From NCBI GenBank assembly GCA_041389785.1, contig JAWKRH010000026.1:1-24000 (forward strand): a stretch of 24,000 nt of DNA, given 5' to 3'. The stretch is from Polyangiaceae bacterium. Its GTDB lineage: Bacteria; Myxococcota_A; Polyangia; Polyangiales; Polyangiaceae. The translations under genes were made by a program, and so were the position numbers. Below, piece after piece: positions 1,710-18,516 of this stretch. Numbering within the stretch: the first letter of the stretch is position 1; each line of letters begins with the position of its first letter. A model generated the notes under the pieces. The model saw only the letters and a list, made by a program, of their open reading frames with translations, did not search any database and was not told the origin of the DNA.

Positions 1710-2045
1710 CTACCCGGCGATCCCCGCCGCGATCTTCGCGAGAGCCTCCTCGACCGGCTCCTCGTTCGCGACTCAGACGACCCGCCACCCCGCGCGCGCG
1801 AGCCGCGCGTCCCGCTTCGCGTCCGCCTCGCTGCGCTCGGCGTGATACCCCCCATCGACCTCGACCACGACGCGCACACTTGACGGCGCGAAGTCGACGA
1901 TGACCCCGGCGATCACCACCTGTCGCCGAAACACCACCCCGAGCCGCGCCGCGCGCAGCGCGCGCCATACGCGCTCCTCGCTCGCCGTGGGCGCGTGACG
2001 CATGCGAGCCGCGTGAGCACGAAGGACCTGAGCGCGAGTGACCAT
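1710..2045 (-). pseudogene. DUF559 (Vsr-like) endonuclease domain gene with premature in-frame TGA
   Basis: Reads MVTRAQVLRAHAARMRHAPTASEERVWRALR..FRRQVVIAGVIVDFA..VVVEVDGGYHAE..RDARLARAGWRVV, then TGA at 1773-1775 where the intact paralog (7361..7696) has Arg. The frame continues VANEEPVEEALAKIAAGIAG to TAG at 1710-1712. A GGAGG lies upstream of the ATG. Confidence 0.75.
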
Positions 2046-2492
2046 GAGCACCTCCCGTCCCGGCGGGGCGCCGGGCGCAGCGACCCGAGCGCAGGCGGCG
2101 TGACGCGCGTCCACGCCTCGACGCGCGTGACGCGTTGGAGCGCGGCGCGCCGCGTGCGCGTCAGAGCAAGCCCGGCGCCCCACCGGGACGGGAGCACGCG
2201 GGAGTGAGCGCGTGGCGCATGTATACGCAAGCTTTAGCGCTCGAGTGCCTGTTCGCGATCTTGCCCGCACTCGCCGCACAAGCGTCGGCGGCGCGTCTCC
2301 GCGATGCTCCCGCCCTCGGCCCACGCCCGCCCCCGCGCGTCTTCACCCCATGATTCAGGGCCGGCGCTAGGGCCGGGTACGGGTCTCCCCCGCGCGCCCG
2401 CAGCGCGGAGCGCGAGGACGCGCTTGGGGGAGCGGCGTGGCGAGACACGCGAGAGCTCGCGCCGCTGACCCACGCCCGTGGGGGCAACTCCA
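2046..2492. repeat. inter-cassette conserved module, variant 1 (with ~48-bp insertion)
   Basis: Same sequence family as 7697..8096, 3762..4032 and 13457..13728. Contains the GCATGTATACGCA box, TGATTCAG, helix P-a (CTCCCCCGCGCG/CGCGCttGGGGGAG), helix P-b (GGCGTGG/CCACGCC) and the junction CGTGGGGGCAACTCCA. Confidence 0.85.
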
Positions 2493-3232
2493 ATGCGGGC
2501 CCGCGTGTGGCTGCCCGAGGTTGGGGTGTTCAGCGCGATCGATGAGCTCGCGTACCACGACGCGACCTCGACGCTGTGGGGTTGGCCGGGGCAGAGCCCG
2601 TATCGATATTCGGACCCGAGCGGTCGCTGCCCCGCCTGTGTCGCGGCGTTGGTGACCCTCATCGGCTTCGGCGTGGCGGCGCGCCGTCCGACACAGCGAG
2701 TGCTCCGGCGGACCTTCCTGGAATGATGGCGGCGGTGCCCGGGCTGGGCCAGGCGGCCGGGGCCGGGCTCCGGGGCATCGCCGGCTTCTTCGCGCCCTAC
2801 GTGGAGCGGACCGCGCCAGGCCTCGCCAACGCGCTGCGAGGCGCCCCGCGCGCGAGCGCCGCTGCGGAAGCAGCTGGGGGCAGTTGCGGCGGGGGCGTGG
2901 CAGCTGGCGGGGCTGCGCCTGGAACGATCGCACAAATTGCCGAGGGCAAGAGTATCCAGGGAGGAGTGCGGGCGCTCAACGAGGCGGGCGCCTCGCAACA
3001 GGAGGCGGTGCAAGCCTTGACGCAAATCGTTGCCAACTCTGGTCGAGAGCTTATTCAGACGACGGTGCAGGGCGAGGCCGGCAGCGTAGGTCTAGCAGGT
3101 GTTCAGTTCGTCCACGGCGGAGCAACCAAGGCCGTGGTCGTTGGCGCAGACGGCGTCGCTAGGTACGGCTCTGCGACCGCCACGTATTCGGCGGACGGCT
3201 CGCTCGTGCTCTCGAACTTCGTTCCGTACTGA
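2478..3232 (+). pseudogene. orphan RHS tip + toxin tail (family B/F), frameshifted
   Basis: Starts MGATPMRARVWLPEVGVFSAIDELAYHDATSTLWGWPGQSPYRYSDPSGRCPACVAALVTLIGFGVAA. A 2-nt insertion near 2681 (ggcggcgcgccgtcc here, ggcggcgccgtcc at 12371) shifts the frame. The rest of the tail continues in ORF 2576..3232, identical to the tail of 11493..12926. Confidence 0.75.
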
Positions 3233-3246
3233 GTACGCTTGCCCCC

Positions 3247-3645
3247 ATGAGCATCCCCCCGAACATCTCCCATCGCATTGAGCGTGCGATCGGCATGTTG
3301 GAGCCCGAGCCGCTCGGGCACGTCAACTACGAGGGGCGGCGGCATCGAGCGCTTCCGCTCTTCGGCACGGTGGGTGAAGTTTGGCTGCTCCGGCCCGACG
3401 GCACACTGTGGAGAGCAGACTCCGACGCGGGGCTGCCACTGGAGCCTCTCCCCGCAGAGCTGCACACGATGGCGCTCGTCGCTGGCTCGCTGCGATATCC
3501 TTGGCTTGGCGCGTTGCTGCCCGTGCGACCGCTTGGAGCCATCGAGTGCGGAACTTGCGACGGGGCGGGAAGGTTGGGCGCGACGAAGACGGTCTTCTGC
3601 AACACCTGTGGCGCGCTTGGGTGGCGCCCGCCGCCACCCGGGTGA
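3247..3645 (+). CDS. putative immunity protein with DnaJ-type CxxCxGxG zinc-finger pair
   Basis: 132-aa ORF starting 14 nt after the toxin stop. The protein is identical to 12941..13339. The C-terminus carries ECGTCDGAGRLGATKTVFCNTCGALG. Confidence 0.7.
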   Translation: MSIPPNISHRIERAIGMLEPEPLGHVNYEGRRHRALPLFGTVGEVWLLRPDGTLWRADSDAGLPLEPLPAELHTMALVAGSLRYPWLGALLPVRPLGAIECGTCDGAGRLGATKTVFCNTCGALGWRPPPPG

Positions 3646-3665
3646 GCACTCCTGGTTGACGGTCG

Positions 3666-3761
3666 CCGCCGCAGCGCGCGCCATACGCGCTCCTCGCTCG
3701 CCGTCGGCGCGTGACGCATGCGAGCCGCGTGCGCACGAAGTAGTTGAGCGCGAGCGACCAT
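3666..3761 (-). pseudogene. DUF559 endonuclease 5' stump
   Basis: Encodes MVARAQLLRAHAARMRHAPTASEERVWRALR, then homology stops. The leader and RBS are also deleted (gaccatgag|ccccaccggg here, against ~130 extra nt in the intact copy). Confidence 0.7.
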
Positions 3762-4032
3762 GAGCCCCACCGGGACGGGGGCACGCCGGAGCGAGCGCAC
3801 ACTGCATGTGTACGCACGCTTACGCACTCGAGTGACTGTTCGCGATGCTGCCGCCCTCGGCATACGCCCGCCTCCGCGCGTCTTCACCCCATGATTCAGG
3901 GCCGGCGCTAGGGCCGGGTACGGGTCTCCCCGCGCGCCCGCAGCGCGGAGCGCGAGGACGCGCTTGGGGGAGCGGCGTGGCGAGACACGCGAGAGCTCGC
4001 GCCGCTGACCCACGCCCGTGGGGGCAACTCCA
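3762..4032. repeat. inter-cassette conserved module, variant 1 (short form)
   Basis: Nearly identical to 13457..13728, with one C missing in the CTCCCCC run. Confidence 0.8.
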
Positions 4033-4097
4033 ATGCGGGCCGCGTGTGGCTGCCCGAGGTGGGGGTGTTCAGCGCGATCGACGAGCTCGCGTACCAA
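4019..4097 (+). pseudogene. 5' fragment of orphan RHS tip, cut by IS21 insertion
   Basis: GTG GGG GCA ACT CCA ATG CGG.. tip motif carrying a 1-nt deletion (atgcgggccgcg here, atgcgggcccgcg elsewhere). It ends at ..gagctcgcgtaccaa, directly abutting the IS left end. The continuation resumes at 6291. Confidence 0.75.
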
Positions 4098-4223
4098 TGT
4101 TGAGCGTCAGTAAAACTGACCCCCTGGCGACACTAAAACTGACCCCCCTCCCGGTGGCGGGAAGGATGGGAAAAGTCGATGGAATCAGGGCAAATTGTGG
4201 CACCTCCGGAGGCGGAGGTCGTG

Positions 4224-5447
4224 ATGGTCGAGCCGGAGCTCGTACGGCAGATCCGCTTGTTGCACGAGGCGGGATGGGGCGCGAAGAGCATCGCGCGGGA
4301 GGTCGCGGTCGCACGCAACACGGTGCGGCGGTACCTGCGTAGCCCACAGGCCGAGGTTCAGGTCCGGCCTGCGCGACGCGCGCTCGATGCCGAGGCGTGC
4401 TCGCGAGCTCGCGAGCTCTTCGCCGGCGCAGCGGGCGGCAACGCGGTCGTCGTCCAGCAGATGCTCGAAGCGCAGGGCGTCGAGGCGAGCGTGCGCTCGG
4501 TCCAGCGCGCGGTCGCGGAGCAACGGCGCCAGGCGCGCGTCGCCGCGCTCGCGACGGTTCGGTACGAGACCGCGCCGGGCGAGCAGATGCAGATCGACTT
4601 CGGCGAGAAGTGGGTCGACATCGCGGGCGAGCCAACGCGCGTGTTCCTCCTCGTTGCCGTGCTGAGCCATTCGCGCAGGCTCTTCGTGAAGCCGTTCCTC
4701 AACCAGCGCTCGGACGACTGGCGTGAGGGCATCGCCGCCGCGTTCCGGCACTTCGGCGGCGTCCCGCGCACGCTCCTCGGCGACAACGCCAAGGCGCTCG
4801 TCCTCGGTCGCGATCGGACGAGCGGCGCGGTGACGTTCCATCCGACCTACGTCGCGTTCTGTCGTGACTGGGGCGTCCAGCCCCGCGCATGCGGGCCGTA
4901 CCGCGCCCGGACCAAGGGCAAGACCGAGAGCGGCGTGAAGTACGTCAAGCGCAACGGACTGGCCGACCGCGCGTTCGAGTCGTTCGCGGCGCTCGAGCAG
5001 CACCTCGGCGAGTGGATGGTCCTCGCCGACCAGCGCGAGCACGGCACGACGCACGAGCGGCCGTTCGACCGCTTCGAGCGCGACGAGCGACGCGCGCTCC
5101 GGCCGCTACCGGCGCAGCCGCTCGTCGTGCGTCACCGTCGGCTCCGCCGGCGCGTCAGCAACGACGCCTTCGTAGACGTCGACACCGTCCGCTACAGCGT
5201 GCCGTTTCGGCTCGTGCGCGCCGAGGTCGAAGTCGTCGTCGGCGACGACGCCGTCGACGTGTTCCTCGGCGTCGAGCGCGTCGCACGCCACCTCCGCTCG
5301 AGCGAGCCCCACGCCCGCATCGTCGATCCGGCGCACTTCGATGGGCTCTGGCGTCGCTCCCCTGCGCCCGTCGTCACTGGCGGTGCGCTCGAAGCCCTCG
5401 GCCGCAGCCTCGCGGACTACGAGGCCGTCCTCGAGGTGGCGTCATGA
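4224..5447 (+). CDS. istA: IS21-family transposase IstA
   Basis: N-terminal HTH (ELVRQIRLLHEAGWGAKSIAREVAVARNTVRRYL). DDE core pattern (QIDFGEKW..VFLLVAVLSHSRR..AFRHFGGVPRTLLGDNAKALV). The start is uncertain: ATG 4224 follows GGAGGCGGAGG, and the ORF is open from ATG 4179. Confidence 0.9.
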   Translation: MVEPELVRQIRLLHEAGWGAKSIAREVAVARNTVRRYLRSPQAEVQVRPARRALDAEACSRARELFAGAAGGNAVVVQQMLEAQGVEASVRSVQRAVAEQRRQARVAALATVRYETAPGEQMQIDFGEKWVDIAGEPTRVFLLVAVLSHSRRLFVKPFLNQRSDDWREGIAAAFRHFGGVPRTLLGDNAKALVLGRDRTSGAVTFHPTYVAFCRDWGVQPRACGPYRARTKGKTESGVKYVKRNGLADRAFESFAALEQHLGEWMVLADQREHGTTHERPFDRFERDERRALRPLPAQPLVVRHRRLRRRVSNDAFVDVDTVRYSVPFRLVRAEVEVVVGDDAVDVFLGVERVARHLRSSEPHARIVDPAHFDGLWRRSPAPVVTGGALEALGRSLADYEAVLEVAS

Positions 5448-6223
5448 AGGACCTCGTCCACGCCCGCGTCGTCGATAACCTCGCTCGCCTCCGGCTCGGT
5501 CACGTCGCGGAGCGCGTCGACGCTTTGCTCTCCGAGGCGGCGAAGAAGGACTCGACGTACCTCGACTTCCTCGACGGGCTCCTCTCCGAGGAGCTCGCGA
5601 GCAAGCAACGCAAGCGCATCGCGATGCACGTGCAGATTGCGCACTTCCCGGCCGTGAAGACGCTCGACGACTTCGATTTCAAGTTCCAGCCGAGCCTGGA
5701 CCAGAAGCTCGTGCGCGAGCTCGCCACCGGCCGCTACATCGCCAACGCCGAAAACGTCCTCGTCTTCGGGCCGCCCGGCGTCGGCAAGACGCACCTCGCG
5801 ATCGCGCTCGGCCGCGCCGCCGTCGAGACCGGCCACGCTGTGCTCTTCGTCAGCGCCACGACCCTGCTCGCGCAGCTCGCCCGCGCCGAGGCGGAAGGAC
5901 AGCTCGACGCCAAGCTCGCCTACTTCGCGAAGCCGAAGCTCCTCGTCATCGACGAGCTCGGCTACCTGCCCTTCGAGAAGCGCGCCGCGCATCTCTTCTT
6001 CCAGCTCGTCGCGCGGCGCTACGAGCGCGGCAGCCTCCTCATCACGACCAACCAGGTCGTGACGCAGTGGGGCGCCGTCTTCGGCGACGACGTGCTCGCG
6101 GCGGCGATCCTCGACCGCCTCTTGCACCACTCCCACACCCTCATGATCCAAGGAGAGAGCTACCGCTTGAAGCAGAAGAAAAGGGCCGGCCTGCTCGGTA
6201 GCAGCGCGGCCTCGAAGGGCTGA
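5444..6223 (+). CDS. istB: IS21-family helper ATPase IstB
   Basis: ATGA overlap with the istA stop. Walker A GPPGVGKTH, Walker B LLVIDELGY, and a typical IstB tail (LLITTNQ..WG..F.D..LAAAILDRLLHHS). Confidence 0.92.
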   Translation: MKDLVHARVVDNLARLRLGHVAERVDALLSEAAKKDSTYLDFLDGLLSEELASKQRKRIAMHVQIAHFPAVKTLDDFDFKFQPSLDQKLVRELATGRYIANAENVLVFGPPGVGKTHLAIALGRAAVETGHAVLFVSATTLLAQLARAEAEGQLDAKLAYFAKPKLLVIDELGYLPFEKRAAHLFFQLVARRYERGSLLITTNQVVTQWGAVFGDDVLAAAILDRLLHHSHTLMIQGESYRLKQKKRAGLLGSSAASKG

Positions 6224-6290
6224 TCGCAGGCCTCTGGGAGGGGGTCAGTTTTACTGTCGTAAGGGGGTCAGTTCTCGCTGACGTTGCACA

Positions 6291-6979
6291 ACCAATCGTC
6301 GCGGCACACGCTGTGGAGCTGGCCTGGGCAGAGTCCATATCGCTATGCGGACCCGAGCGGTCGCTACGCGGTCCCCGGTCTAGCTCCGTTCCTGACCGCC
6401 CCGCTTGCACCCGGCGGCGCCGTGTCGTTCGAGGTTGGCATCGCGACTGCTTCGAGCGCGGGGACGTTCGGGGCCTTCGCACTCGCGGCCGGCGCGATCA
6501 TCACCGCCGCGACGTACGATATCCTCACCCAGCTCGACCAGCTCGAGCACCCAACCGTGACCACGGACGGGGGCAGCAGCCCTGCCGGCTCTGGCCGGGG
6601 TTGCCCGAGCGCCGCGGGAGGTGGCAACATCAGTGGCGGCGGACCACCGGCGCCCCCCACGTCGAGTTCTGGTGGGGGCGGTGCTTCGGACGCAGGCTCT
6701 GATGGAGGGGACCCATTTGCGATTCTCCGCAGCCTGCCACGAGGCCGCCAATCGCATGTTCGTACGGTGGGCTCGGAGCAACAGCTCGAGGCCATCTTCG
6801 ATCAGCTGGCGTCCGGGGGCACGCCGGTCCAGAACTATCCGGGCCGCGCGGTTCGGCTGTCGGACGGCACCTTCGTCGGAATCCGCCAGGGATCGGCGTC
6901 AGGTGGTCCAACGATCGACATCAACCGCGCAGGCATTCGAACGAAGATTCACATCGAGCCATGGCCACCGAACCCGTGA
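6291..6979 (+). pseudogene. 3' part of IS-split orphan RHS tip + toxin tail (family C)
   Basis: Resumes ..QSSRHTLWSWPGQSPYRYADPSGRYAVPGL.. right after the IS. Joining 4097 to 6296 restores DELAYQSSRHTLWSW. The tail ends ..SHVRTVGSEQQLEAIFDQLASGGTPVQNYPGRAVRLSDGTFVGIRQGSASGGPTIDINRAGIRTKIHIEPWPPNP, a domain I cannot assign. Confidence 0.75.
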
Positions 6980-7332
6980 GCACCATCGTGGAAGAGATCC
7001 TCGTGCACGGCGCAGACGACTGGGTAGACATGCCTGAGGTCTACGCGATCGTGCGCGAGAAGCTCCCAGAAGCCGACGGCGCGACCCTTCGAGAGCAGGC
7101 GATCGCCGCCATATGTCATGTCGTGAGGCTCGGTCTCATGGAGGTGGGGACCGTCACGACGGCGGGCTTCGTGGGCAGCACAGAAACGGTGGCGTCGTTC
7201 GAGTCGCGCCTCCGTGCCGAGTGGAGTGTGAGCTCTCCGCCCTTCGTCCCGGGAGAGATCTGCTGGCTTCGTCTCACTGAGCGAGGAGCCCCCATAGCTG
7301 AGAAAGCACTCGAGCGACGGCGTAGCGAGTGA
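6961..7332 (+). CDS. putative immunity protein (family C)
   Basis: 123-aa ORF overlapping the toxin end by 19 nt. An intact paralog lies at 18781..19152 and a decayed one at 8825..9192. Confidence 0.7.
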   Translation: MATEPVSTIVEEILVHGADDWVDMPEVYAIVREKLPEADGATLREQAIAAICHVVRLGLMEVGTVTTAGFVGSTETVASFESRLRAEWSVSSPPFVPGEICWLRLTERGAPIAEKALERRRSE

Positions 7333-7360
7333 ATTCGTGGCTTCCGGCGCGGTGCTTAGG

Positions 7361-7696
7361 CTACCCGCCGACCGCCGCCGCGATCCTCGCGACCGCCACC
7401 TCGATCGGCTCCTCGCTGCCAACCCTGACGACGCGCCACCCCGCGCGCGCGAGCCGCGCATCCCGCCTCGCGTCCGCGGCGACGCGCTCCGCATGATACC
7501 CGCCATCGACCTCGACCACGAGCCGCACCGAGGACGCCGCGAAGTCGACGATGCAGCCACCGACGACGACCTGCCGCCGAAACACGACGCCGAGCTGCCG
7601 GCCGCGCAGCGCGCGCCACAGGCGCTCCTCGCTCGCCGTCGGCGCGTGACGCATGCGAGCCGCGTGTGCACGAAGGACCTGAGCGCGATCGACCAT
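7361..7696 (-). CDS. DUF559 (Vsr-like) endonuclease domain protein, the only intact copy
   Basis: 111 aa: MVDRAQVLRAHAARMRHAPTASEERLWRALRGRQLGVVFRRQVVVGGCIVDFAASSVRLVVEVDGGYHAERVAADARRDARLARAGWRVVRVGSEEPIEVAVARIAAAVGG. GGAGGTG sits 5 nt upstream of the ATG. Confidence 0.85.
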   Translation of the reverse strand: MVDRAQVLRAHAARMRHAPTASEERLWRALRGRQLGVVFRRQVVVGGCIVDFAASSVRLVVEVDGGYHAERVAADARRDARLARAGWRVVRVGSEEPIEVAVARIAAAVGG

Positions 7697-8096
7697 GAGC
7701 ACCTCCCGTCCCGGCGGGGCGCCGGGCGCAGCGACCCGAGCGCAGGCGGCGTGACGCGCGTCCACGCCTCGACGCGCGTGACGCGAGGAGCGCGGCGCGC
7801 CGCGTGCGCGTCAGAGCAAGCCCGGCGCCCCACCGGGACGGGGGCACGCCGGAGCGAGCGCGTAACGCATGTATACGCATGCTTACGCGCTCGAGGGCCT
7901 GTTCGCGATGCTCCTGCCCTCGGCCCACGCCCGCCCCCGCGCGTCTTCACCCCATGATTCAGGGCCGGCGCTAGGGCCGCGTACGGGTCTCCCCCGCGCG
8001 CCCGCAGCGCGCAGCGCGAGGACGCGCTTGGGGGAGCGGCGTGGCGAGACACGCGAGAGCTCGCGCCGCCGACCCACGCCCGTGGGGGCAACTCCA
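7697..8096. repeat. inter-cassette conserved module, variant 1 (full form with DUF559 leader)
   Basis: Contains the leader hairpin 7753-7780, the GCATGTATACGCATGC box 7867-7882, helices P-a and P-b, and the junction CGTGGGGGCAACTCCA ending at 8096. Confidence 0.85.
7753..7780 (-). promoter_or_regulatory. hairpin in DUF559 leader
   Basis: GACGCGCGTC cacgcctc GACGCGCGTG gives a 9-bp stem with an 8-nt loop, 57-84 nt upstream of the DUF559 ATG. Also present at ~2101-2135 and ~9605-9640. Absent from the two stump copies. Confidence 0.35.
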
Positions 8097-8843
8097 ATGC
8101 GGGCCCGCGTGTGGCTGCCCGAGGTGGGGGTGTTCAGCGCGATCGACGAGCTCGCGTACCACGACGCGGCACACGCTGTGGAGCTGGCCTGGGCAGAGTC
8201 CATATCGCTATGCGGACCCGAGCGGTGCTACGCGGTCCCCGGTCTGGGGCCCACCCTGACCGCCCCGCCTGTACCCGGCGGCGCCGTGTCGTTCGAGGTT
8301 GGCATCGCGACTGCTTCGAGCGCGGGGACGTTCGGGGCCTTCGCACTCGCGGCCGGCGCGATCATCACCGCCGCCGCGACGTACGATATCCTCACCCAGC
8401 TCGACCAGCTCGAGCAACCAACCGTGACCACGGACGGGGCAGCAGCCCTGCCGGCTCTGGCCGGGGTTGCCCGAGCGCCGCGGGAGGTGGCAACATCAGT
8501 GGCGGCGGACCACCGGCGCCCCCCACGTCGAGTTCTGGTGGTGGGGCGGTGCTTCGACGCAGGCTCTGATGGAGGGGACCCATTTGCGATTCTCCGCAGC
8601 CTACGAGGCCGCCAATCGCATGTTCGTACGGTGGGCTCGGAGCAACAGCTCGAGGCCATCTTCGATCAGCTGGCGTCCGGGGGCACGCCGGTCCAGAACT
8701 ATCCGGGCTGCGCGGTTCGGCTGTCGGACGGCACCTTCGTCGGAATCCGCCAGGGATCGGCGTCAGGTGGTCCAACGATCGACATCAACCGCGCAGGCAT
8801 TCGAACGAAGATTCACATCGAGCCATGGCCACCGAACCCGTGA
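8082..8843 (+). pseudogene. decayed orphan RHS tip + toxin tail (family C paralog)
   Basis: Collinear with 4019..4097 + 6296..6979 but carries several small indels (gcggtcgctac>gcggtgctac, gacgggggcagc>gacggggcagc, agcctgccacgagg>agcctacgagg). Reading needs at least 3 frame changes. Confidence 0.7.
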
Positions 8844-9192
8844 GCACCATCGTGAAGAGATCCTCAGGTACGGCGCAGACGACTGGGTAGACATGCCTGA
8901 GGTCTACGCGATCGTGCGAGAGTTCCGCAGCCGACGGCGCGACCCTTCGAGAAAGCAGGCGATCGCCGCCATATGTCGCGTCGCAGGCTCGGTCTCATGG
9001 AGGTGGGGACCGTCACGACGGCGGGCTTCGTGGGCAGCACAGAAACGGTGGCGTCGTTCGAGTCGCGCCTCCGTGCCGAGTGGGAGTGTGAGCTCTCCGC
9101 CCTTCGTCCCGGGAGAGATCTGCTGGCTTCGTCTCACTGAGCGAGGAGCCCCCATAGCTGAGAAAGCACTCGAGCGACGGCGTAGCGAGTGA
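8825..9192 (+). pseudogene. decayed immunity gene (family C paralog)
   Basis: Collinear with 6961..7332. It carries 1-nt and multi-nt deletions (cgtggaagag>cgtgaagag, gagaagctcccagaagcc>gagagttccgcagcc). Confidence 0.65.
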
Positions 9193-9220
9193 ACGCGGCT
9201 TCCGGCGCGGTGCTTTCAGG

Positions 9221-9548
9221 CTACCCGCCGCCGCCGCGATCCTCGCGACCGCCACCTCGATCGGCCTCGCCGCCAACCCTGACGACGCGCCACCCTGCGC
9301 GCGCGAGCCGCGCATCCCGCCTCGCGTCCGCGACGCGCCCGCATGATACCCGCCATCGACCTCGACCACGAGCCGCACCGAGGACGCCGCGAAGTCGACG
9401 ATGCAGCCACCGACGACGACCTGCCGCCGAAACACGACGCCGAGCTGCCGGCCGCGCAGCGCGCGCACACAGGCGCCCTCGCCTTCGCCGTCGGCGCGTG
9501 ACGCATGCGAGCCGCGTGTGCACGAAGGACCTGAGCGCGATCGACCAT
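9221..9548 (-). pseudogene. DUF559 endonuclease gene, frameshifted
   Basis: Starts MVDRAQVLRAHAARMRHAPTA, then loses frame. The FRRQVVVGGCIVDFAASSVRLVVEVDGGYHA segment is found in another frame (ORF 9013..9468). Confidence 0.7.
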
Positions 9549-9930
9549 GAGCACCTCCCGTCCCGGCGGGGCGCCGGGCGCAGCGACCCGAGCGCAGGCG
9601 GCGTGACGCGCGTCCACGCCTCGACGCGCGTGACGCGAGGAAGCGCGGCGCGCCGCGTGCGCGTCAGAGCGCGCGCCCGGCGCCCCACCGGGACGGGGGC
9701 ACGTTGAGCGCGTAACGCATGTATACGCATGCTTACGCGCTCGAGGGCCTGTTCGCGATGCTCCTGCCCTCGGCTCCACGCCCGCCCCCGCGTCTTCACC
9801 CCAAGCGATTCAGGGCCGGGTTAGGCCGCGTACGGTCTCCGCGCCCGCAGCGCGCAGCGCGAGGACGCGCTTGGGGAGCGGCGCGGCGAGACACGCGAGA
9901 GCTCGCGCCGCCGACCCACGCCCGTACCCA
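9549..9930. repeat. inter-cassette module, variant 1, decayed
   Basis: Collinear with 7697..8096 with many small deletions. The junction is reduced to cccgtacccaATG. Confidence 0.7.
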
Positions 9931-10677
9931 ATGCGGGCCCGCGTGTGGCTGCCCGAGGTGGGGGTGTTCAGCGCGATCGACGAGTTCGCGTACCACGACG
10001 CGCGGAGCACGTTAGGTTGGCTCGCATTCTCGGTCAGGTGGCGGGATCCGTACGGACGCGGTGTAGTGCCGCGAGGCCCGGACTTCCTGAGGTTGCTCGG
10101 AGACGCAGCGTTCGACAACGCAGCAGACCTTCGGGACTTCGCGGTCGCAGACTACCAGGCGGGGAACTACACCAGCGTACTTCCACGGGGACTGGCGTTC
10201 GACATGGCGCTGATCGGGGTGGCGGCGAAGGCGCTACCCGCGATCGACGACGCTGTCGCGATGGCGGAGGGCATAGCGCAGCCGCTGCAAGCTGGGGAAT
10301 AGCCCACGCGCCGGCGGCGCGCGCGGTACTGGGGCTCGACCCGCGAACAACGGGGTCTCGCCGCAATGGCAGCCTGGCGCACGACGCGCGCGTGCGGAAG
10401 ATCGCGAGCTCGATGAAGAAGAAACGGTGTAGAGGATGTTCGAGTGAACCAGCAACAGGTCGACGCGAAGGGCAACGTCGTCGGCCGGAATCGGCCAGAC
10501 GTGCAGGGGACCCACCCCGAGACAGGTCAACGCGTAAACATTGAGATCGACACGAGCGAGTCGGGCTCGCTGAGGCACCAGCGGGTGGTGCCAGCGAACG
10601 ATCCCGACGCAGTGAACACCTTCATCGGCATCGATGGCGAAGGTCGACCGACCTCGGCTACAACGAGGAGACCATGA
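9931..10677 (+). pseudogene. decayed orphan RHS tip + pre-toxin module + toxin tail (family E/G paralog)
   Basis: Collinear with 13729..14484: MRARVWLPEVGVFSAIDEFAYHDARSTL.., VRWRDPYGRGVVPRGPDFLRLLGDAAF.., and NQQQVDAKGNVVGRNRPDVQGTHPETGQRVNIEIDTSE in ORF 10444..10677. Several indels break the frame. Confidence 0.7.
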
Positions 10678-11282
10678 CGCGGCTGTCTGCGCATCTTCAT
10701 GAAATCTGCGCCTTGAGGCGGACCTGACGCGAGCGGCGGACACAAACGAAGCGTGGATGGGGATGCCGCGGACCCGTCCAGCGTTGCGGAATCGCGGAGC
10801 CGACGAGGCACTCGCGCGCCTACCTGCTGGCGTCGTTTGCGAGTCGTTACCTGCACGTCCCATGGGCAGGGTGGACACTTGTCCTCCGGAATAAGCGTGT
10901 TATCGCGGCCGACGATGTCCTCTTCTCGTTGTCCAAAGAGCTGGCGTGTCGTGGCATGTACGGATCGTGGGCGACGAACGGCTGCATGTGGCGCGTGGTG
11001 GAGAACGGGGAGCTGCGGCGTGCGGTGCACTGCTTCTTGATCTTCGGATCGGTGGGAGTTCTGGTGGGAGCTCGCTACCCGTTCGAGCATCCGAGCTCTA
11101 CGAGAAGCGACGAAAGAAGGATCGGATGCCACCTGCGGTCGTGCTCGAGTACCTCGAGCAGGTGATGGGCGTGCCCCCACCCGATCGGCGGAGCCTCCTG
11201 TCGCAGGAGACGGTGCTTCGAGCGGTCGACGCACAAGCTGCGTCGCCCGATCGAGGAGTATGCGGTCGAGGTCGACATCTAG
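10674..11282 (+). pseudogene. decayed immunity gene (family E/G paralog)
   Basis: Collinear with 14481..15101. Same ATGA start and same TAG end context, but fragments lie in three frames (for example ORFs 10929.. and 10946..). Confidence 0.65.
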
Positions 11283-11512
11283 CCAGCCGATGCCGCGGGC
11301 GGAAGCCCGCTGCACCGTTGGAAGCGCTCATCGCCAGCACGTGCTGCGGATGTACATACACGCAGTGACGCCCTGATTCAGCGGGTGAGAGAGCCGCGGA
11401 GGGGTCTCCCCCGTCCGCCTGCAGCGCGAAGCGCGAAGCCGGACTTGGGGGAGCGGCATGGCGAGACACACGCCGCATCGCGCCTGTGAGCCATGCCCGT
11501 GGGGGCAACTCC
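11283..11512. repeat. inter-cassette module, variant 2 (no DUF559)
   Basis: Contains GGATGTACATACACGCA, TGATTCAG, P-a (CTCCCCCGTCCG/CGGACttGGGGGAG), P-b (GGCATGG/CCATGCC) and the junction CGTGGGGGCAACTCCA. Identical to the 15102..15331 copy over the helices. Confidence 0.8.
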
Positions 11513-12926
11513 AGCGCTGGACCGCCTCACGAGCGTCACGCGAGAGGTGGGCGGCGCGCCCGTCGCGCTCGAGACGTACGCGTTCAACCGCCTCGGCGCC
11601 TTGAAGACCCACGCGGGCGCGCCCGTAGACGACCAGCGCCCGCGGCTCGACGGTGGAGGCCTCGCAGACGCGGCCGTGCCGGCCACGGCGGGAGGTCAAC
11701 CCATCACGGTCGACGCGGCGGGCCGCCTCACCGCGCTGCGCGGAGTGAGCCTGGGCTACTCAGGCATGGGCTACCTGATCGAGGCGGCCCCACCCATCCC
11801 CGGGGTGTCGCAGCACTTCTTGATGGATGCCTCGATGCGTCGAGTGCTCAAGGCGAGCGCCGACGGAGCAGAGGTAGAGCGGTACGCGTACGAGGGAGCG
11901 AACCGCGTGGCGGTCCTCGACCGCTTCGGAACCGTGACCGAGTCGACGCTGTTCGACGGGGTGGATCACCTGCTGCGCATGCGCAGGGGCGCGACGACCG
12001 TCTTCTTCGAGCTCGATCTCGCCGGCAACGTACGGCGACTGCGCGGTGCGGGTGGCGTGGACCTCGGCGGGTACAGGTACTCGGCGTTCGGCAGGCAGCT
12101 CGAGGACACCGCGAGCGCGAGCTTCGCGCAGCCGTTCCGGTGGAAGGGGCGGCCGCGCGATGTGCTGGGCGGGGTCGAGACGTATGACATGCGGGCGCGC
12201 GTGTGGCTGCCCGAGGTGGGGGTGTTCAGCGCGATCGACGAGCTCGCGTATCAGGACGCGCGGAGCACGCTGTGGGGTTGGCCCGGGCAGAGCCCGTATC
12301 GATATTCGGACCCGAGCGGTCGCTGCCCCGCCTGTGTCGCGGCGTTGGTGACCCTCATCGGCTTCGGCGTGGCGGCGCCGTCCGACACAGCGAGTGCTCC
12401 GGCGGACCTTCCTGGAATGATGGCGGCGGTGCCCGGGCTGGGCCAGGCGGCCGGGGCCGGGCTCCGGGGCATCGCCGGCTTCTTGGCGCCCTACGTGGAG
12501 CGGACCGCGCCAGGCCTCGCCAACGCGCTGCGAGGCGCCCCGCGCGCGAGCGCCGCTGCGGAAGCAGCTGGGGGCAGTTGCGGCGGGGGCGTGGCAGCTG
12601 GCGGGGCTGCGCCTGGAACGATCGCACAAATTGCCGAGGGCAAGAGTATCCAGGGAGGAGTGCGGGCGCTCAACGAGGCGGGCGCCTCGCAACAGGAGGC
12701 GGTGCAAGCCTTGACGCAAATCGTTGCCAACTCTGGTCGAGAGCTTATTCAGACGACGGTGCAGGGCGAGGCCGGCAGCGTAGGTCTAGCAGGTGTTCAG
12801 TTCGTCCACGGCGGAGCAACCAAGGCCGTGGTCGTTGGCGCAGACGGCGTCGCTAGGTACGGCTCTGCGACCGCCACGTATTCGGCGGACGGCTCGCTCG
12901 TGCTCTCGAACTTCGTTCCGTACTGA
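11493..12926 (+). CDS. long orphan RHS protein: ~230 aa of YD-repeat shell + core tip + toxin tail (family B/F)
   Basis: 477-aa intact ORF. YD-type repeats (VERYAYEGANRVAVLD, GGYRYSAFGRQ, FAQPFRWKGRP), the tip motif ..YDMRARVWLPEVGVFSAIDELAYQDARSTLWGWPGQSPYRYSDPSGRC, a hydrophobic linker, then a ~130-aa tail of unknown fold ending SLVLSNFVPY. The start could be ATG 11493 or the conserved GTG 11499. Confidence 0.85.
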   Translation: MPVGATPALDRLTSVTREVGGAPVALETYAFNRLGALKTHAGAPVDDQRPRLDGGGLADAAVPATAGGQPITVDAAGRLTALRGVSLGYSGMGYLIEAAPPIPGVSQHFLMDASMRRVLKASADGAEVERYAYEGANRVAVLDRFGTVTESTLFDGVDHLLRMRRGATTVFFELDLAGNVRRLRGAGGVDLGGYRYSAFGRQLEDTASASFAQPFRWKGRPRDVLGGVETYDMRARVWLPEVGVFSAIDELAYQDARSTLWGWPGQSPYRYSDPSGRCPACVAALVTLIGFGVAAPSDTASAPADLPGMMAAVPGLGQAAGAGLRGIAGFLAPYVERTAPGLANALRGAPRASAAAEAAGGSCGGGVAAGGAAPGTIAQIAEGKSIQGGVRALNEAGASQQEAVQALTQIVANSGRELIQTTVQGEAGSVGLAGVQFVHGGATKAVVVGADGVARYGSATATYSADGSLVLSNFVPY

Positions 12927-12940
12927 GTACGCTTGCCCCC

Positions 12941-13339
12941 ATGAGCATCCCCCCGAACATCTCCCATCGCATTGAGCGTGCGATCGGCATGTTGGAGCCC
13001 GAGCCGCTCGGGCACGTCAACTACGAGGGGCGGCGGCATCGAGCGCTTCCGCTCTTCGGCACGGTGGGTGAAGTTTGGCTGCTCCGGCCCGACGGCACAC
13101 TGTGGAGAGCAGACTCCGACGCGGGGCTGCCACTGGAGCCTCTCCCCGCAGAGCTGCACACGATGGCGCTCGTCGCTGGCTCGCTGCGATATCCTTGGCT
13201 TGGCGCGTTGCTGCCCGTGCGACCGCTTGGAGCCATCGAGTGCGGAACTTGCGACGGGGCGGGAAGGTTGGGCGCGACGAAGACGGTCTTCTGCAACACC
13301 TGTGGCGCGCTTGGGTGGCGCCCGCCGCCACCCGGGTGA
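12941..13339 (+). CDS. putative immunity protein with DnaJ-type zinc-finger pair
   Basis: Identical protein to 3247..3645. It follows the intact toxin by 14 nt. Confidence 0.75.
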   Translation: MSIPPNISHRIERAIGMLEPEPLGHVNYEGRRHRALPLFGTVGEVWLLRPDGTLWRADSDAGLPLEPLPAELHTMALVAGSLRYPWLGALLPVRPLGAIECGTCDGAGRLGATKTVFCNTCGALGWRPPPPG

Positions 13340-13358
13340 GCACTCCTGGTTGACGGTC

Positions 13359-13456
13359 GCGCCGCGCAGCGCGCGCCATACGCGCTCCTCGCTCGCCGTC
13401 GGCGCGTGACGCATGCGAGCCGCGTGCGCACGAAGTAGTTGAGCGCGAGCGACCAT
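13359..13456 (-). pseudogene. DUF559 endonuclease 5' stump
   Basis: Same truncated form as 3666..3761 (MVARAQLLRAHAARMRHAPTASEERVWRALRG..). Confidence 0.7.
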
Positions 13457-13728
13457 GAGCCCCACCGGGACGGGGGCACGCCGGAGCGAGCGCACACTGC
13501 ATGTGTACGCACGCTTACGCACTCGAGTGACTGTTCGCGATGCTGCCGCCCTCGGCATACGCCCGCCTCCGCGCGTCTTCACCCCATGATTCAGGGCCGG
13601 CGCTAGGGCCGGGTACGGGTCTCCCCCGCGCGCCCGCAGCGCGGAGCGCGAGGACGCGCTTGGGGGAGCGGCGTGGCGAGACACGCGAGAGCTCGCGCCG
13701 CTGACCCACGCCCGTGGGGGCAACTCCA
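13457..13728. repeat. inter-cassette conserved module, variant 1 (short form)
   Basis: P-a is 13621-13632 paired with 13655-13668. P-b is 13670-13676 paired with 13706-13712. The conserved GTG is at 13714. Confidence 0.85.
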
Positions 13729-14484
13729 ATGCGGGCCCGCGTGTGGCTGCCCGAGGTGGGGGTGTTCAGCGCGATCGACGAGCTCGCGTACCACGACGCG
13801 CGGAGCACGCTGTGGGGTTGGCCCGGGCAGAGCCCGGTCAGGTGGCGGGATCCGTACGGACGCGGTGTAGTGCCGCGAGGCCCGGACTTCCTGAGGTTGC
13901 TCGGAGACGCAGCGTTCGACAACGCAGCAGACCTTCGGGACTTCGCGGTCGCAGACTACCAGGCGGGGAACTACACCAGCGCGTACTTCCACGGGGGACT
14001 GGCGTTCGACATGGCGCTGATCGGGGTGGCGGCGAAGGCGCTACCCGCGATCGTCGACGCCGTCGCGATGGCGGAGGGCGGCGGGCGCAGCTGCAAGTTG
14101 GGGAACAGCCCACGCGCCGGCGGCGCGCGCGGTACTGGGGCTCGACCCGCGAACAACGGGGTCTCGCCGCCGCACGGCAGCCCGGCGCACGACGCGCGCG
14201 TGCGGAAGATCGCGAGCTCGATGAAGAAGAACAAGTGGGAGGATGTTCGAGTGAACCAGCAACAGGTCGACGCGAAGGGCAACGTCGTCGGCCGGAATCG
14301 GCCAGACGTGCAGGGGACCCACCCCGAGACAGGTCAACGCGTAAACATTGAGATCGACACGAGCGAGTCGGGCTCGCTGAGGCACCAGCGGGTGGTGCCA
14401 GCGAACGATCCCGACGCAGTGAACACCTTCATCGGCATCGATGGCGAAGGTCGACCGACCTCGGCTACAACGAGGAGACCATGA
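13714..14484 (+). CDS. short orphan RHS tip + pre-toxin module + toxin tail (family E/G; possible PD-(D/E)xK-like nuclease)
   Basis: Intact 256-aa ORF from the conserved GTG (MGATPMRARVW..; alternative ATG 13729). Contains VRWRDPYGRG and the shared module PRGPDFLRLLGDAAF..GGGRSCK. The tail reads HDARVRKIASSMKK..GRNRPDVQG..GQRVNIEIDTSE. The fold assignment is weak. Confidence 0.75.
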   Translation: MGATPMRARVWLPEVGVFSAIDELAYHDARSTLWGWPGQSPVRWRDPYGRGVVPRGPDFLRLLGDAAFDNAADLRDFAVADYQAGNYTSAYFHGGLAFDMALIGVAAKALPAIVDAVAMAEGGGRSCKLGNSPRAGGARGTGARPANNGVSPPHGSPAHDARVRKIASSMKKNKWEDVRVNQQQVDAKGNVVGRNRPDVQGTHPETGQRVNIEIDTSESGSLRHQRVVPANDPDAVNTFIGIDGEGRPTSATTRRP

Positions 14485-15101
14485 CGCGGCTGTCTGCGCA
14501 TCTTCATGAAATCTGCGCCTTTGAGGCGGACCTGACGCGAGCGGCGGACACAAACGAAGCGTGGATGGGACGTTACGGACCCGTCCAGCGTTGGCGGAAT
14601 CGCGGAGCCGACGAGGCACTCGCGCGCCTACTTCCGCTGGCGTCGTTTGCGAGTCGTTACCTGCACGTCCCATGGGCAGGGTGGACACTTGTCCTCCGGA
14701 ATAAGCGTGTTATCGCGGCCGACGATGTCCTCTTCTCGTTGTCCAAAGAGCTGGCGTGTCGTGGCATGTACGGATCGTGGGCGACGAACGGCTGCATGTG
14801 GCGCGTGGTGGAGAACGGGGAGCTGCGGCGTGCGGTGCACTGCTTCTTGGATTCGGATCGGTGGGAGTTCTACGAGGAGGGAGCTCGCTACCCGTTCGAG
14901 CATCCGGAGCTCTACGAGAAGCGACGAAAGAAGGATCGGATGCCACCTGCGGTCGTGCTCGAGTACCTCGAGCAGGTGATGGGCGTGCCGTTCCCACCCG
15001 ACTGGCGGAGCCTCCTGTCGCAGGAGACGGTGTGCCTCGAGCGGTCGACGCACAAGCTGCGTCGCCCGATCGAGGAGTATGCGGTCGAGGTCGACATCTA
15101 G
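14481..15101 (+). CDS. putative immunity protein (family E/G)
   Basis: 206-aa ORF with ATGA overlap on the toxin stop. No recognisable domain. Confidence 0.72.
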   Translation: MTRLSAHLHEICAFEADLTRAADTNEAWMGRYGPVQRWRNRGADEALARLLPLASFASRYLHVPWAGWTLVLRNKRVIAADDVLFSLSKELACRGMYGSWATNGCMWRVVENGELRRAVHCFLDSDRWEFYEEGARYPFEHPELYEKRRKKDRMPPAVVLEYLEQVMGVPFPPDWRSLLSQETVCLERSTHKLRRPIEEYAVEVDI

Positions 15102-15331
15102 CCAGCCGATGCCGCGGGCGGAAGCCCGCTGCACCGTTGGAAGCGCTCATCGCCAGCACGTGCTGCGGATGTACATACACGCAGTGACGCCCTGATTCAG
15201 CGGGTGAGAGAGCCGCGGAGGGGTCTCCCCCGTCCGCCTGCAGCGCGAAGCGCGAAGCCGGACTTGGGGGAGCGGCATGGCGAGACACACGCCGCATCGC
15301 GCCTGTGAGCCATGCCCGTGGGGGCAACTCC
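15102..15331. repeat. inter-cassette module, variant 2 (no DUF559)
   Basis: P-a is 15225-15236 paired with 15259-15272. P-b is 15274-15280 paired with 15310-15316 and contains ATG 15312. The conserved GTG is at 15318. Confidence 0.8.
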
Positions 15332-16712
15332 AGCGCTGGACCGCCTCACGAGCGTCACGCGAGAGGTGGGCGGCGCGCCCGTCGCGCTCGAGACGTACGC
15401 GTTCAACAGCCTCGGCGCCTTGAAGACCCACGCGGGCGCGCCCGTAGACGACCAGCGCCCGCGCCTCGACGGCGGAGGCCTCGCAGACGCGGCCGTGCCG
15501 GCCACGGCGGGAGGTCAACCCATCACGCTCGACGCGGCGGGCCGCCTCACCGCGCTGCGCGGAGTGAGCCTGGGCTACTCAGGCATGGGCTACCTGATCG
15601 AGGCGGCCCCACCCATCCCCGGGGTGTCGCAGCACTTCTTGATGGATGCCTCGATGCGTCGAGTGCTCAAGGCGAGCGCCGACGGAGCAGAGGTAGAGCG
15701 GTACGCGTACGAGGGAGCGAACCGCGTGGCGGTCCTCGACCGCTTCGGAACCGTGACCGAGTCGACGCTGTTCGACGGGGTGGATCACCCCATCCGTCTG
15801 AAGCGAGGCGGGACGACGGTCTTCTTGGAGCTAGACCTCGCCGGCCACGTGAGGCGACTGCGCGCGCCAGGCGGCGGAGACCTGGGGGGATACCGCTACA
15901 GCGCGTTCGGCAAGCAGCTCGAGGACACAGCGAGCGCAAGCTTCACGCAGCCGTACCGGTGGAAGGGACGCCCCCGCGACGTGCTGGGCGGGGTCGAGAC
16001 GTATGACATGCGAGCCCGCGTGTGGCTGCCCGAGGTGGGGGTGTTCAGCGCGATCGACGAGCTCGCGTACCACGACGCGCGGAGCACGCTGTGGGGTTGG
16101 CCGGGGCAGAGCCCGGTGCGGTGGAGTGATCCGTACGGGCGAGGTGTCACGCCGAGGGGCCCCGACTTTCTCGGGCTGCTCGGAGACGCCGCTTTCCAGA
16201 ACGCAGCGGACCTGCGGGACTTCGCGGTCGCAGACTACAACGCGGGTAACTACACGAGCGCGTACTTCCACGGGGGTCTGGCGTTCGACATGGCGCTGAT
16301 CGGGGTGGCGGCGAAGGCGCTACCCGCGATCGTCGACGCCGTCGCGATGACCGAGGGCGGCGGGCGCAGCTGCAAGACCGGCGCGAGGGGGTCCTCAGGC
16401 CGGGGCCAAGCAACTGCGACTGGCGGAGGGGAGACCAAGCAGACGGGTTCCTATACCAACACGCATGCCAGCGGCAAGACCTATTCGGGCAAGGGTTCCC
16501 GAACGCGCTCTCAGCAGTCCGGTCGGCGTCAGGCTCGCGCCAACGACGATCCCCACACGGCCACAGACTGGACTCCGGCAGAGAACACGCGGGAGGCATT
16601 CAAGCAGGAATCTCGACGGCTAGATGGTCAAGGTGGGGTAGAAAGCCCGTCGAACTATAACGAGGTCGAATCGCCCGGGAAGCGGTTCCGGATCGAGGAT
16701 GGTGAGCTGTGA
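15312..16712 (+). CDS. long orphan RHS protein: YD-repeat shell + core tip + pre-toxin module + GIY-YIG-like toxin tail (family H)
   Basis: 466-aa intact ORF. The N-terminal 160 aa are nearly identical to 11493..12926. Contains the tip ..VRWSDPYGRG and the shared pre-toxin module up to GGGRSCK. In the tail, GSYTNTHASGKTYSGKGS gives Y-x9-Y-x-G, followed by RTRSQQSGRR; the E of FKQESRRLD and the first N of SNYN lie 15 residues apart. This is GIY-YIG-like spacing. Confidence 0.85.
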   Translation: MPVGATPALDRLTSVTREVGGAPVALETYAFNSLGALKTHAGAPVDDQRPRLDGGGLADAAVPATAGGQPITLDAAGRLTALRGVSLGYSGMGYLIEAAPPIPGVSQHFLMDASMRRVLKASADGAEVERYAYEGANRVAVLDRFGTVTESTLFDGVDHPIRLKRGGTTVFLELDLAGHVRRLRAPGGGDLGGYRYSAFGKQLEDTASASFTQPYRWKGRPRDVLGGVETYDMRARVWLPEVGVFSAIDELAYHDARSTLWGWPGQSPVRWSDPYGRGVTPRGPDFLGLLGDAAFQNAADLRDFAVADYNAGNYTSAYFHGGLAFDMALIGVAAKALPAIVDAVAMTEGGGRSCKTGARGSSGRGQATATGGGETKQTGSYTNTHASGKTYSGKGSRTRSQQSGRRQARANDDPHTATDWTPAENTREAFKQESRRLDGQGGVESPSNYNEVESPGKRFRIEDGEL

Positions 16713-18434: not shown

Positions 18435-18516
18435 CTTGGAGCTCGGCGACGGGCAGATTTGGCTCGCCCCTGAGCCGCGCCGCCGAGAACATCGCAGGGG
18501 AGCCTGCGCGCCGAGC

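Follow-up and report, generated by a model that had tools for sequence, protein, structure and literature searches.

Why should a small nuclease gene stand, time and again and on the opposite strand, at the boundaries between toxin cassettes? The question is raised by the first 24,000 nucleotides (nt) of contig JAWKRH010000026.1 from a Polyangiaceae bacterium (GenBank assembly GCA_041389785.1, forward strand), which were analysed as a whole and are called the window here. The G+C content of the window is ~68-70%, and the contigs most closely related to it, from metagenomes, carry the labels Polyangiaceae or Myxococcales, which indicates a myxobacterial source. An RHS orphan-toxin array spans positions 1 to ~19,000, the window beginning within a fragment of RHS core. 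A 75-nt sequence for the end of the core, which reads MRARVWLPEVGVFSAIDELAY...SPYRYSDPSG, occurs eight times (221, 2490, 4029, 8094, 9928, 12186, 13726 and 16005). Each copy leads into a distinct C-terminal tip and a small open reading frame (ORF), the divergent tips starting after ...TLWGWPGQSPYRYSDPSG, and the DPxG core-end motif lies directly ahead of the variable tips, as is characteristic of RHS orphan arrays; of the core itself, the orphans of the window retain no more than 24 or ~230 codons. The diversification of RHS and other polymorphic-toxin arrays is generally put down to plain homologous recombination of a main gene with silent orphans. What is new in the window is the presence of a nuclease gene and a palindrome in the constant joint of such an array, the protein family DUF559 itself being known.

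By tblastn and alignment, exactly five copies of the DUF559 gene were found in the window, all on the minus strand and all where a sequence-only reading had placed them. Copy c3 (7361..7696, 111 codons plus stop) is intact, and copy c1 (1710..2045) is a full-length pseudogene with one in-frame TGA at codon 91 (plus strand 1773..1775), both as that reading had it. Copy c4 (9221..9548), which had been described as frameshifted, is indeed a damaged pseudogene, and carries not one frameshift but five indels (+1, +1, -4, -2, -4) relative to c3. The 5' stumps c2 (3666..3761) and c6 (13359..13456) retain the first 32 codons, and in both the interior of the upstream palindrome (~130 nt) and the ribosome-binding site are deleted; supposed to be identical, they are near-identical (98% over the first ~100 nt), and their truncated ends differ. 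A candidate sixth remnant at 18510-18806 proved spurious: it aligns at 31% identity with 25% gaps, is interrupted by a stop and lacks the catalytic motif.

The 111-amino-acid (aa) product of 7361..7696 matches Pfam DUF559 (PF04480) with an E-value of 1.4e-25 and 89.7 bits (cut-off 20.6) over profile positions 4-92 of 109. A PDB profile search with this protein and its relatives returned 3HRL (E 4.7e-22) and 3R3P (E 1.7e-4), and an AlphaFold (AF2) model with a predicted local-distance difference test score (pLDDT) of 90.5 gave 3R3P (E 8e-5), 3HRL and E. coli Vsr (1VSR) as the top three Foldseek matches, each with a probability of 1.00. The closest solved relative by sequence, 3HRL, is the structural-genomics target NGO0050 of Neisseria gonorrhoeae, for which we know of no RHS context. 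The family motif, hhDF ... E-V-D-G-x-x-H ... D..R, is found in most relatives; an alignment of 32 sequences shows no variation at D51, D64 and R78 and almost none at E62 and H68, and the 7361..7696 product has all five residues. To judge by sequence and modelled fold, the gene encodes a predicted DUF559 nuclease of the Vsr-like PD-(D/E)XK type. The modelled likeness to Vsr is one of fold only, and the protein is not Vsr proper; it reached 18.1 bits with the Vsr model TIGR00632 of NCBIfam (cut-off 97.85) and 69.9 bits with the YcjD-type equivalog NF007294 (cut-off 218). PADLOC and PHROGs returned no meaningful family for it, and it is therefore not a known defence protein. The intact RHS-linked copies have a ratio of non-synonymous to synonymous substitution rates (dN/dS) of 0.2-0.5, which amounts to moderate purifying selection. 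Most single copies, with or without an RHS link, are intact and keep the catalytic motif; decayed ones occur in the multi-copy arrays of the window and of the loci L030/L031 (frameshifts), and a 5' stump occurs in L038. Here and below, L-numbers denote homologue loci on metagenome contigs and in species-representative genomes, and P-numbers denote protein variants. The copy in L034 has Asn for the conserved Asp of the hhDF motif (FIGNF) and may, on this residue, be catalytically inactive.

The ~390 nt upstream of the gene had been taken for one conserved module. About 400 nt upstream of every full-length copy are conserved, as claimed, but they do not form a single module. The array joints that have no DUF559 gene share solely the last ~145 nt of this region in alignment, and the module therefore has two components: a DUF559 unit at 7361..~7952 (~0.6 kb), to which ~255 nt of leader and distal sequence belong, and a separate junction core at 7953..8096 (plus strand, ~145 nt). 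The unit comprises the 336-nt ORF, a palindromic leader of ~170 nt and ~85 nt further upstream that hold ACGCATGTATACGCATGC. This distal segment (7868..7952, minus strand), with the AT-richer motif ACGCATGTATACGCATGCTTACGCG, is conserved in all five copies and absent from the DUF559-less junctions; it is possibly a promoter, and a sigma-70 consensus scan of 7300-8200 found no promoter-like site, the ATGTATAC segment included. The junction core precedes every orphan tip with or without DUF559, and its homology to 11368-11525 and 15187-15344 starts at TGATTCA. The two DUF559-less cores, both on the plus strand, lie at 11368..11492 and 15187..15311, ahead of the long RHS-core orphans 11493..12926 and 15312..16712, respectively. 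The junction core is non-coding, and in the long orphans its last bases give the start MPVGATP; it could be a promoter or leader of the orphans, or a recombination substrate.

Together, DUF559 gene, leader, junction core and RHS core end make up a constant block (7361..8226) that separates the variable pairs of tip and immunity gene. Its last part, the core end of orphan cassette 4 (8097..8226, plus strand), starts MRARVWLPEVGVFSAIDELAY and was recognised as one of the core-end repeats and by tblastn to the 1913-aa RHS protein of L002; its DPSG motif is frame-shifted here. The homology of the block to L001, L002, L003, L004, L015 and L018 ends at 7358-7361, that is, at the DUF559 stop codon, and on the opposite side it continues into the RHS core end. 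Because the homology ends at the stop codon, the putative immunity ORF of cassette 3 (6961..7332, plus strand, no Pfam match), which converges with the DUF559 gene across a 28-nt gap, belongs to the variable part. Reading the module in the direction of the tip, as an N-terminal extension of the orphan ORF, was also considered, since an ORF at 7869..8843 shares the reading frame of the tip and L004 has a 414-aa ORF called through the homologous region. It was rejected because the indels between copies, among them a 46-nt insertion in c1, are not multiples of three, and further because the extension has only 5 codons in c1 and c6.

The five copies go back to no more than three lineages and were spread as cassettes underwent segmental duplication, because c2 and c6 lie in one duplicated block and c3 and c4 in another. 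Cassettes 2 and 6 are duplicates over 1.6 kb (2493-4096 and 12189-13793, 98.8% identity), cassettes 3 and 4 over 6297-8168 and 8162-10002 (94.7%), and a further duplication joins 9682-12296 to 13459-16115 (93.8%). The five decay states described earlier are thus seen, but as duplication followed by pseudogenisation and not as independent events. The orphan tips themselves have decayed by frameshifts and an IS21 insertion: cassettes 2 and 5 are frameshifted against their duplicates 6 and 7 (2493-2726 vs 12189-12926; 9931-10302 vs 13729-14484), the core end of cassette 3 (4029-4103) has a 1-nt deletion, and in cassettes 3 and 4 the ATG and the DPSG motif are in different frames (4029-4103; 8097-8226). 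The decay of the DUF559 copies is therefore part of an array-wide decay and nothing special to them.

Copy c1 is a distinct allele, 80-84% identical to c3 within the ORF body. Compared with c3, c1 shows 97.9% identity across the junction core, 99.2% across the leader interior and 90% over codons 1-32, but 80% in the middle and 84% at the 3' end of the ORF, a gradient from which it follows that homogenisation of the joint has reached into the 5' part of the ORF. The breakpoint of the stumps at codon 32 lies within this transition. The ORF exists in two alleles, c1-type and c3-type, and recombinant alleles are found in other samples (P0003, P0006). The allele pattern is as predicted by homologous recombination between constant joints, for which a dedicated nuclease is not required.

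Outside the window, the DUF559 gene was found next to RHS genes in other myxobacteria. Twelve contexts of homologues were looked up in order of similarity. At 72% identity or more, seven of seven adjoin toxin cassettes on the opposite strand; at 71% or less, five of five are not evidently toxin-linked. The toxin-linked set includes L001 and L014. In L002, a full-length 1913-aa RHS ORF, 97% identical to the RHS core fragment of the window, is followed contiguously by a 91-aa immunity ORF and the antisense DUF559 gene, and in L003 the gene lies downstream of a 2467-aa SpvB/TcdB/YD-shell protein. In L004-L013 and L015 it stands between a Tox-ART-HYD1/DUF6881 cassette and another cassette. One protein variant, P0012, is carried by 18 contigs, and the 10 shown have an identical layout. 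In L101 the gene is divergent from a 2548-aa teneurin-like RHS gene. The module DNA goes with the gene, at 93-95% identity in L001, L002 and L018 and at 70-72% in L004-L015. The L018 contig (CALFYL010000256.1) is labelled as a Planctomycetia metagenome-assembled genome (MAG), yet holds the same RHS/DUF559 block at 91-93% nucleotide identity; it is probably mis-binned.

A scan of species-representative genomes covered 79 DUF559 loci, in which RHS genes and core ends were located by Pfam and with three RHS proteins as tblastn queries. Of ~33 myxobacterial loci, 10 (L018, L019, L021, L025, L030, L031, L034, L035, L038 and L090) had an RHS gene or core end within ~3 kb, against 0 of ~45 non-myxobacterial loci. 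The DUF559 gene is on the opposite strand in all RHS-linked lineages except L034, where it is co-oriented (9968-10357), 200 nt upstream of a 2000-aa teneurin-like RHS gene. In L019 it is divergent from a full-length RHS gene. L030 mirrors the window, although the DNA of its joint is not homologous: a 1912-aa TcdB/RHS gene is followed by an orphan, then a small ORF, then an antisense DUF559 gene with its leader, and finally a further orphan. For ~7-9 independent lineages all within 3.1 kb in windows of ±10 kb, a rough estimate, biased by short contigs and made on no genomic background of RHS density, puts the chance under random placement of RHS genes at the order of 1e-4 to 1e-5. In a neighbour-joining tree of ~111 aa the clade of the window is monophyletic and the other RHS-linked copies are scattered, the tree being too weakly resolved to count captures. 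A reverse scan of metagenomes, with the peptide of the core end as query, brought up no more than 4 contigs, each ~2-3 kb long, in which neither DUF559 nor the module was seen. The contexts looked up and the genome scan establish that the linkage is real beyond the window, in about nine other myxobacterial lineages, and bear out the repeated association with cassette boundaries that had been noticed in the window alone. Other paralogues have ordinary, non-toxin genes as neighbours. The literature searched held no relevant description combining DUF559 with Rhs and none combining it with polymorphic toxins, in keeping with the earlier impression that no such association had been described; a 2012 survey of polymorphic toxins mentions neither Vsr nor homing endonucleases.

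The unit also occurs as a discrete cassette. L022, L023 and L042 share just ~650 nt (9686-10335, 9694-10342 and 9695-10347, respectively), made up of ~260 nt upstream plus the ORF and ending exactly at the stop codon, with 76-85% identity and unrelated flanks; L022 and L023 belong to one genome and L042 to another. Terminal repeats or a target duplication were not evident at the ends of these units. Within single MAGs, repeats of 735-763 nt with the gene stand at contig ends (L037/L041 and L040/L047), and in L052 such a repeat is found twice within 2.7 kb. Within the array some joints have the unit and others lack it, and at non-RHS sites it is discrete. The DUF559 unit is a multi-copy family in Polyangiaceae-type myxobacteria, and the notion of a selfish passenger gains support from the sharp boundaries of the unit at unrelated sites and its variable presence at array junctions. 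A separate repeat of 62-72 nt lies near the units (L023 11087-11158, L042 11099-11170, L022 9622-9683 and 10433-10501).

The leader is the second conserved part of the unit. In c3 (7697..7867, minus strand) it contains a ~140-nt imperfect palindrome, self-complementary over 7705-7842, whose DNA fold has a free energy of -68.6 kcal/mol (z -4.9), and its 3' arm carries a GGGAGG ribosome-binding site 6 nt ahead of the ATG. A covariance model (R1) matches it at 7694-7867 with 106.8 bits, and matches the minus-strand leaders of c1 (2046..2217) and c4 (9549..9725) at 2043-2217 (114.8 bits) and 9546-9725 (114 bits). Most myxobacterial DUF559 paralogues (47-73% aa identity) have an equivalent long hairpin within the 200 nt before the start codon; it stands directly upstream of the gene in L020, L021, L024-L027, L029-L031, L033-L035, L037-L041, L044, L045, L047, L048 and L052. 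Two conserved boxes, GCGCAC...GCGCC and GTCAY.....CTGCGC, pair with each other, and in the outer stems the sequence varies between loci while complementarity is kept. For an alignment of 26 leaders RNAalifold predicted 24 pairs, 15 of them with compensatory changes (one such pair is GC in 11 sequences, UA in 10, CG in 3 and AU in 1). In this alignment 92.6% of cells are paired, against 27-49% when the partners are slid by 1-3 columns, and 0 of 500 shuffled alignments reached the observed values. In at least 20 of the 26 minimum-energy folds, a CUCC close to the 5' end is the pairing partner of the GGAG in the ribosome-binding site.

When R1 was run over 1.25 Mb, all gene-strand matches above ~50 bits ended at a DUF559 start codon, one of them preceding the truncated stump of L038; all are in myxobacterial loci, RHS-linked and not, and the search detected no equivalent covarying leader outside them. 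As the matches end at DUF559 starts in RHS and non-RHS loci alike, the leader belongs to DUF559 genes generally and not to RHS. Rfam 15 gave no match at gathering score anywhere in the window, and only chance-level matches at E-values up to 10 within 7600-8150. The ~170-nt leader, which stands ahead of dozens of DUF559 genes, is thus an undescribed conserved structure that is not in Rfam. Inverted repeats of at least 20 nt are more frequent upstream of DUF559 genes than in random windows of the same loci (68% vs 6% in myxobacteria, 35% vs 8% elsewhere), in agreement with a published analysis in which predicted inversion targets were enriched in DUF559 genes (odds ratio 14.3; PMC9881135). The sense strand was the more stable in 13 of 26 leaders, with G-U counts of 124 vs 92; sense and antisense fold equally well, and folding therefore cannot decide between a leader of the mRNA and a palindrome at the DNA level. 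The palindrome is unstable: its interior is deleted in both stumps of the window, and a different deletion is common to L001 and L018.

Two observations on leaders stand apart. In one sub-clade the long hairpin is replaced by a second type of leader, a simple near-perfect hairpin of 50-63 nt ending in AAGGAG just ahead of the ATG (L016/L023 9862-9958, L042 9865-9961, L022, L028, L032 and L017). In L038, which belongs to an RHS-linked lineage, a second leader at 3704-3910 (R1, 82 bits) is followed by ~9 DUF559 codons and then by unrelated sequence.

How, then, did the gene come to stand at these boundaries? On balance we lean towards a passenger, possibly a selfish one: a repressed nuclease cassette would have become part of the constant RHS joint, where it multiplies passively and decays when redundant. 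The antisense ORFs would be copies of a self-contained ~0.6-kb unit made up of the distal segment, a leader that is predicted to pair with the ribosome-binding site through a CUCC-type anti-Shine-Dalgarno (SD) sequence, and the predicted nuclease gene. One DUF559 lineage may have been taken into the constant joint of RHS orphan-toxin arrays, and within the window the unit would have multiplied passively, through the segmental duplication seen there and through homologous recombination of joints. Redundant copies would then have decayed along with the orphan tips, in keeping with the one intact gene that is left. So understood, the unit would mainly be a hitch-hiking and tightly repressed nuclease cassette that profits from a recombination-prone joint. 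Several points weigh against this. That the position recurs, that the orientation is nearly always the opposite one and that diverged RHS lineages have kept intact copies over the long term exceeds what is expected of a neutral passenger, and would fit a functional role. The unit showed neither terminal repeats nor a target duplication nor an empty site, any of which would be a signature of transposition or homing. The neighbour-joining tree on 111 aa cannot separate one ancient capture from repeated captures, and the enrichment comes from three myxobacterial RHS queries and many short contigs, without a measured background density of RHS genes. Nuclease activity in this clade, too, is a prediction from sequence and model.

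The alternative that fares best, though we consider it unlikely, is that the enzyme is an active driver, nicking or cutting in or near the joint, or cutting a joint that lacks DUF559, in the manner of a free-standing homing endonuclease, so that repair duplicates or exchanges cassettes and spreads the gene. One intact copy would act in trans, and the other copies could then decay. Structurally, the protein best matches the homing endonuclease I-Bth0305I in its catalytic domain (3R3P); the two have in common the catalytic core and the character of a discrete, selfish-looking gene. The unit is present or absent at otherwise homologous joints, its linkage recurs in several arrangements (antisense between cassettes, divergent in L019 and L101, co-oriented upstream in L034), the retention of intact copies at the dN/dS values given above would be expected, and the tight sequestration of the SD sequence fits a dangerous enzyme. 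I-Bth0305I is, however, a larger intron-encoded protein whose remainder mediates DNA recognition, whereas the protein of the window is a free-standing bare core of 111 aa, all of it catalytic and without an extra DNA-recognition domain. No target site was found for it, two joints of the array lack the unit and the region flanking them is duplicated all the same, and many paralogues are far from any toxin gene. I-Bth0305I has been grouped with Vsr and DUF559 in a survey of PD-(D/E)XK proteins (PMC3424549).

The comparison with Salmonella also speaks against a driver. There, Koskiniemi et al (2014; PMC3967940) explain the activation of orphan Rhs (STM0291/0292) by duplication together with homologous recombination across 522 bp, and orphan switching is explained by ordinary homologous recombination with no dedicated nuclease; recombination in the block of the window is evident and needs none either. 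The rhs-CT orphans of Salmonella resemble those of the window in their conserved core end (PxxxxDPxG-type), variable tips and small downstream ORFs, and in the homology of the orphans to the main gene that permits recombination. They differ in that the orphans of the window are preceded by a non-coding junction core and mostly by an antisense nuclease gene with a long palindrome, whereas nothing of this kind is reported for the Salmonella locus, and the paper on it does not contain the word 'nuclease' (PMC3967940).

A more specific form, which we hold to be slightly more doubtful again, is a regulated homing-type cassette in the constant joints of Polyangiaceae RHS arrays, in which the leader opens, the enzyme breaks the joint or a DUF559-less allele, and repair copies the toxin/immunity cassettes. 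If this were true, the duplication, switching and horizontal spread of tips would be driven by a nuclease rather than by spontaneous recombination, and in the covarying leader a toxic nuclease would have a cis-regulator of a new class. As to the proposal that nuclease-supplied breaks drive tip switching, nothing computed here bears on it either way. A nuclease gene and a fragile palindrome in the constant joint would be a testable candidate for initiating or biasing array rearrangements; failing such a role, the unit would show in clear form how a selfish gene can exploit a hot spot of recombination. DUF559 is a very widespread family, and a leader that buries the ribosome-binding site gives a handle on the control of the gene.

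It is improbable that the palindrome itself is the active part, a fragile site at which a hairpin and its SbcCD-type cleavage raise recombination or deletion at cassette boundaries, with the DUF559 ORF incidental. The hairpin is very stable, at least two independent deletions of its interior have occurred (the window stumps; L001 with L018), and a stump that keeps the leader and loses the ORF is also found in L038. The lack of strand asymmetry is compatible with a palindrome at the DNA level, and both the published inversion-target enrichment (PMC9881135) and the upstream inverted repeats of DUF559 genes in general agree with it. Against this, the base of the palindrome always pairs with the ribosome-binding site and its spacing to the start codon is fixed, which points to gene regulation, and the covarying conserved internal boxes argue for a selected structure and not a mere fragile site.

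We give equally little credence to unrelated housekeeping, in which the protein would be a Vsr-type nuclease for T:G mismatch repair that serves a cytosine methyltransferase and is found near RHS as variable islands tolerate extra genes. Its fold is Vsr-like, several paralogues lie among non-toxin genes, with L028 and L032 syntenic, and the Caulobacter crescentus protein VsrA (CCNA_02930), of the same Pfam family, is tied functionally to the unlinked methyltransferase ScmA. VsrA, however, is alphaproteobacterial, single-copy and without toxin context. The TIGR00632 score is far below its cut-off, no RHS-linked copy is further than ~3 kb from an RHS gene or core end in 20-kb windows and one lineage only is not on the opposite strand, the block has its boundary at the stop codon in several loci, and multiple paralogues per genome are unusual for a repair enzyme. 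No cytosine-5 methyltransferase domain was found in the scanned ORFs of the window or in the genes called beside close homologues. An artefact of metagenome assembly, through repeat collapse or mis-joining, is very improbable: contigs of close relatives do break exactly within this block (at 69-366 nt from the gene in L002, L003 and L001), but the same architecture is found on many independent contigs and samples (10 shown of the 18 P0012 contigs), the copies differ by allele-like substitutions with recombinant alleles elsewhere (P0003, P0006), and the indels are not homopolymer errors.

The nearest precedents are the H-rpt elements of E. coli Rhs loci and free-standing homing endonuclease genes. 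H-rpt (H-repeat, ISAs1-type) is a repeated, seemingly selfish sequence beside the C-terminal tips of Rhs genes in E. coli. It encodes a transposase-like protein, whereas the unit of the window has a 111-aa Vsr-like nuclease, a regulatory-looking palindrome and neither transposase nor terminal repeats. For the H-rpt elements of E. coli no transposition has been observed (PMC3032704).

Among the remaining features of the array, tip 1 matches Tox-URI2 (Pfam, E 1.9e-11) and is the sole tip with a match to a toxin family; a Pfam scan of the other tips and of the small downstream putative immunity ORFs gave no match. The cassettes of relatives carry Tox-ART-HYD1 with DUF6881. An insertion sequence element of the IS21 family (~4097-6296; istA at 4179-5447 and an istB-like ORF ending at 6223) interrupts the core end of orphan cassette 3, and multiple inverted terminal ACTGACCCCC repeats mark its ends at 4105-4147 and 6239-6273. 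A third copy of the tip end and putative immunity ORF of cassettes 3 and 4 was found at 18680-19152 (88-92% identical to 6860-7332 and 8724-9200), near the distal end of the array, with neither a recognisable RHS core end nor a DUF559 gene close by; it may be an orphan immunity gene. The plus-strand region 17776-18195 gave a marginal match to the tRNase toxin family Colicin_D (E 1.5e-4, 22.5 bits against a cut-off of 25) and may be a further tip without a core end.

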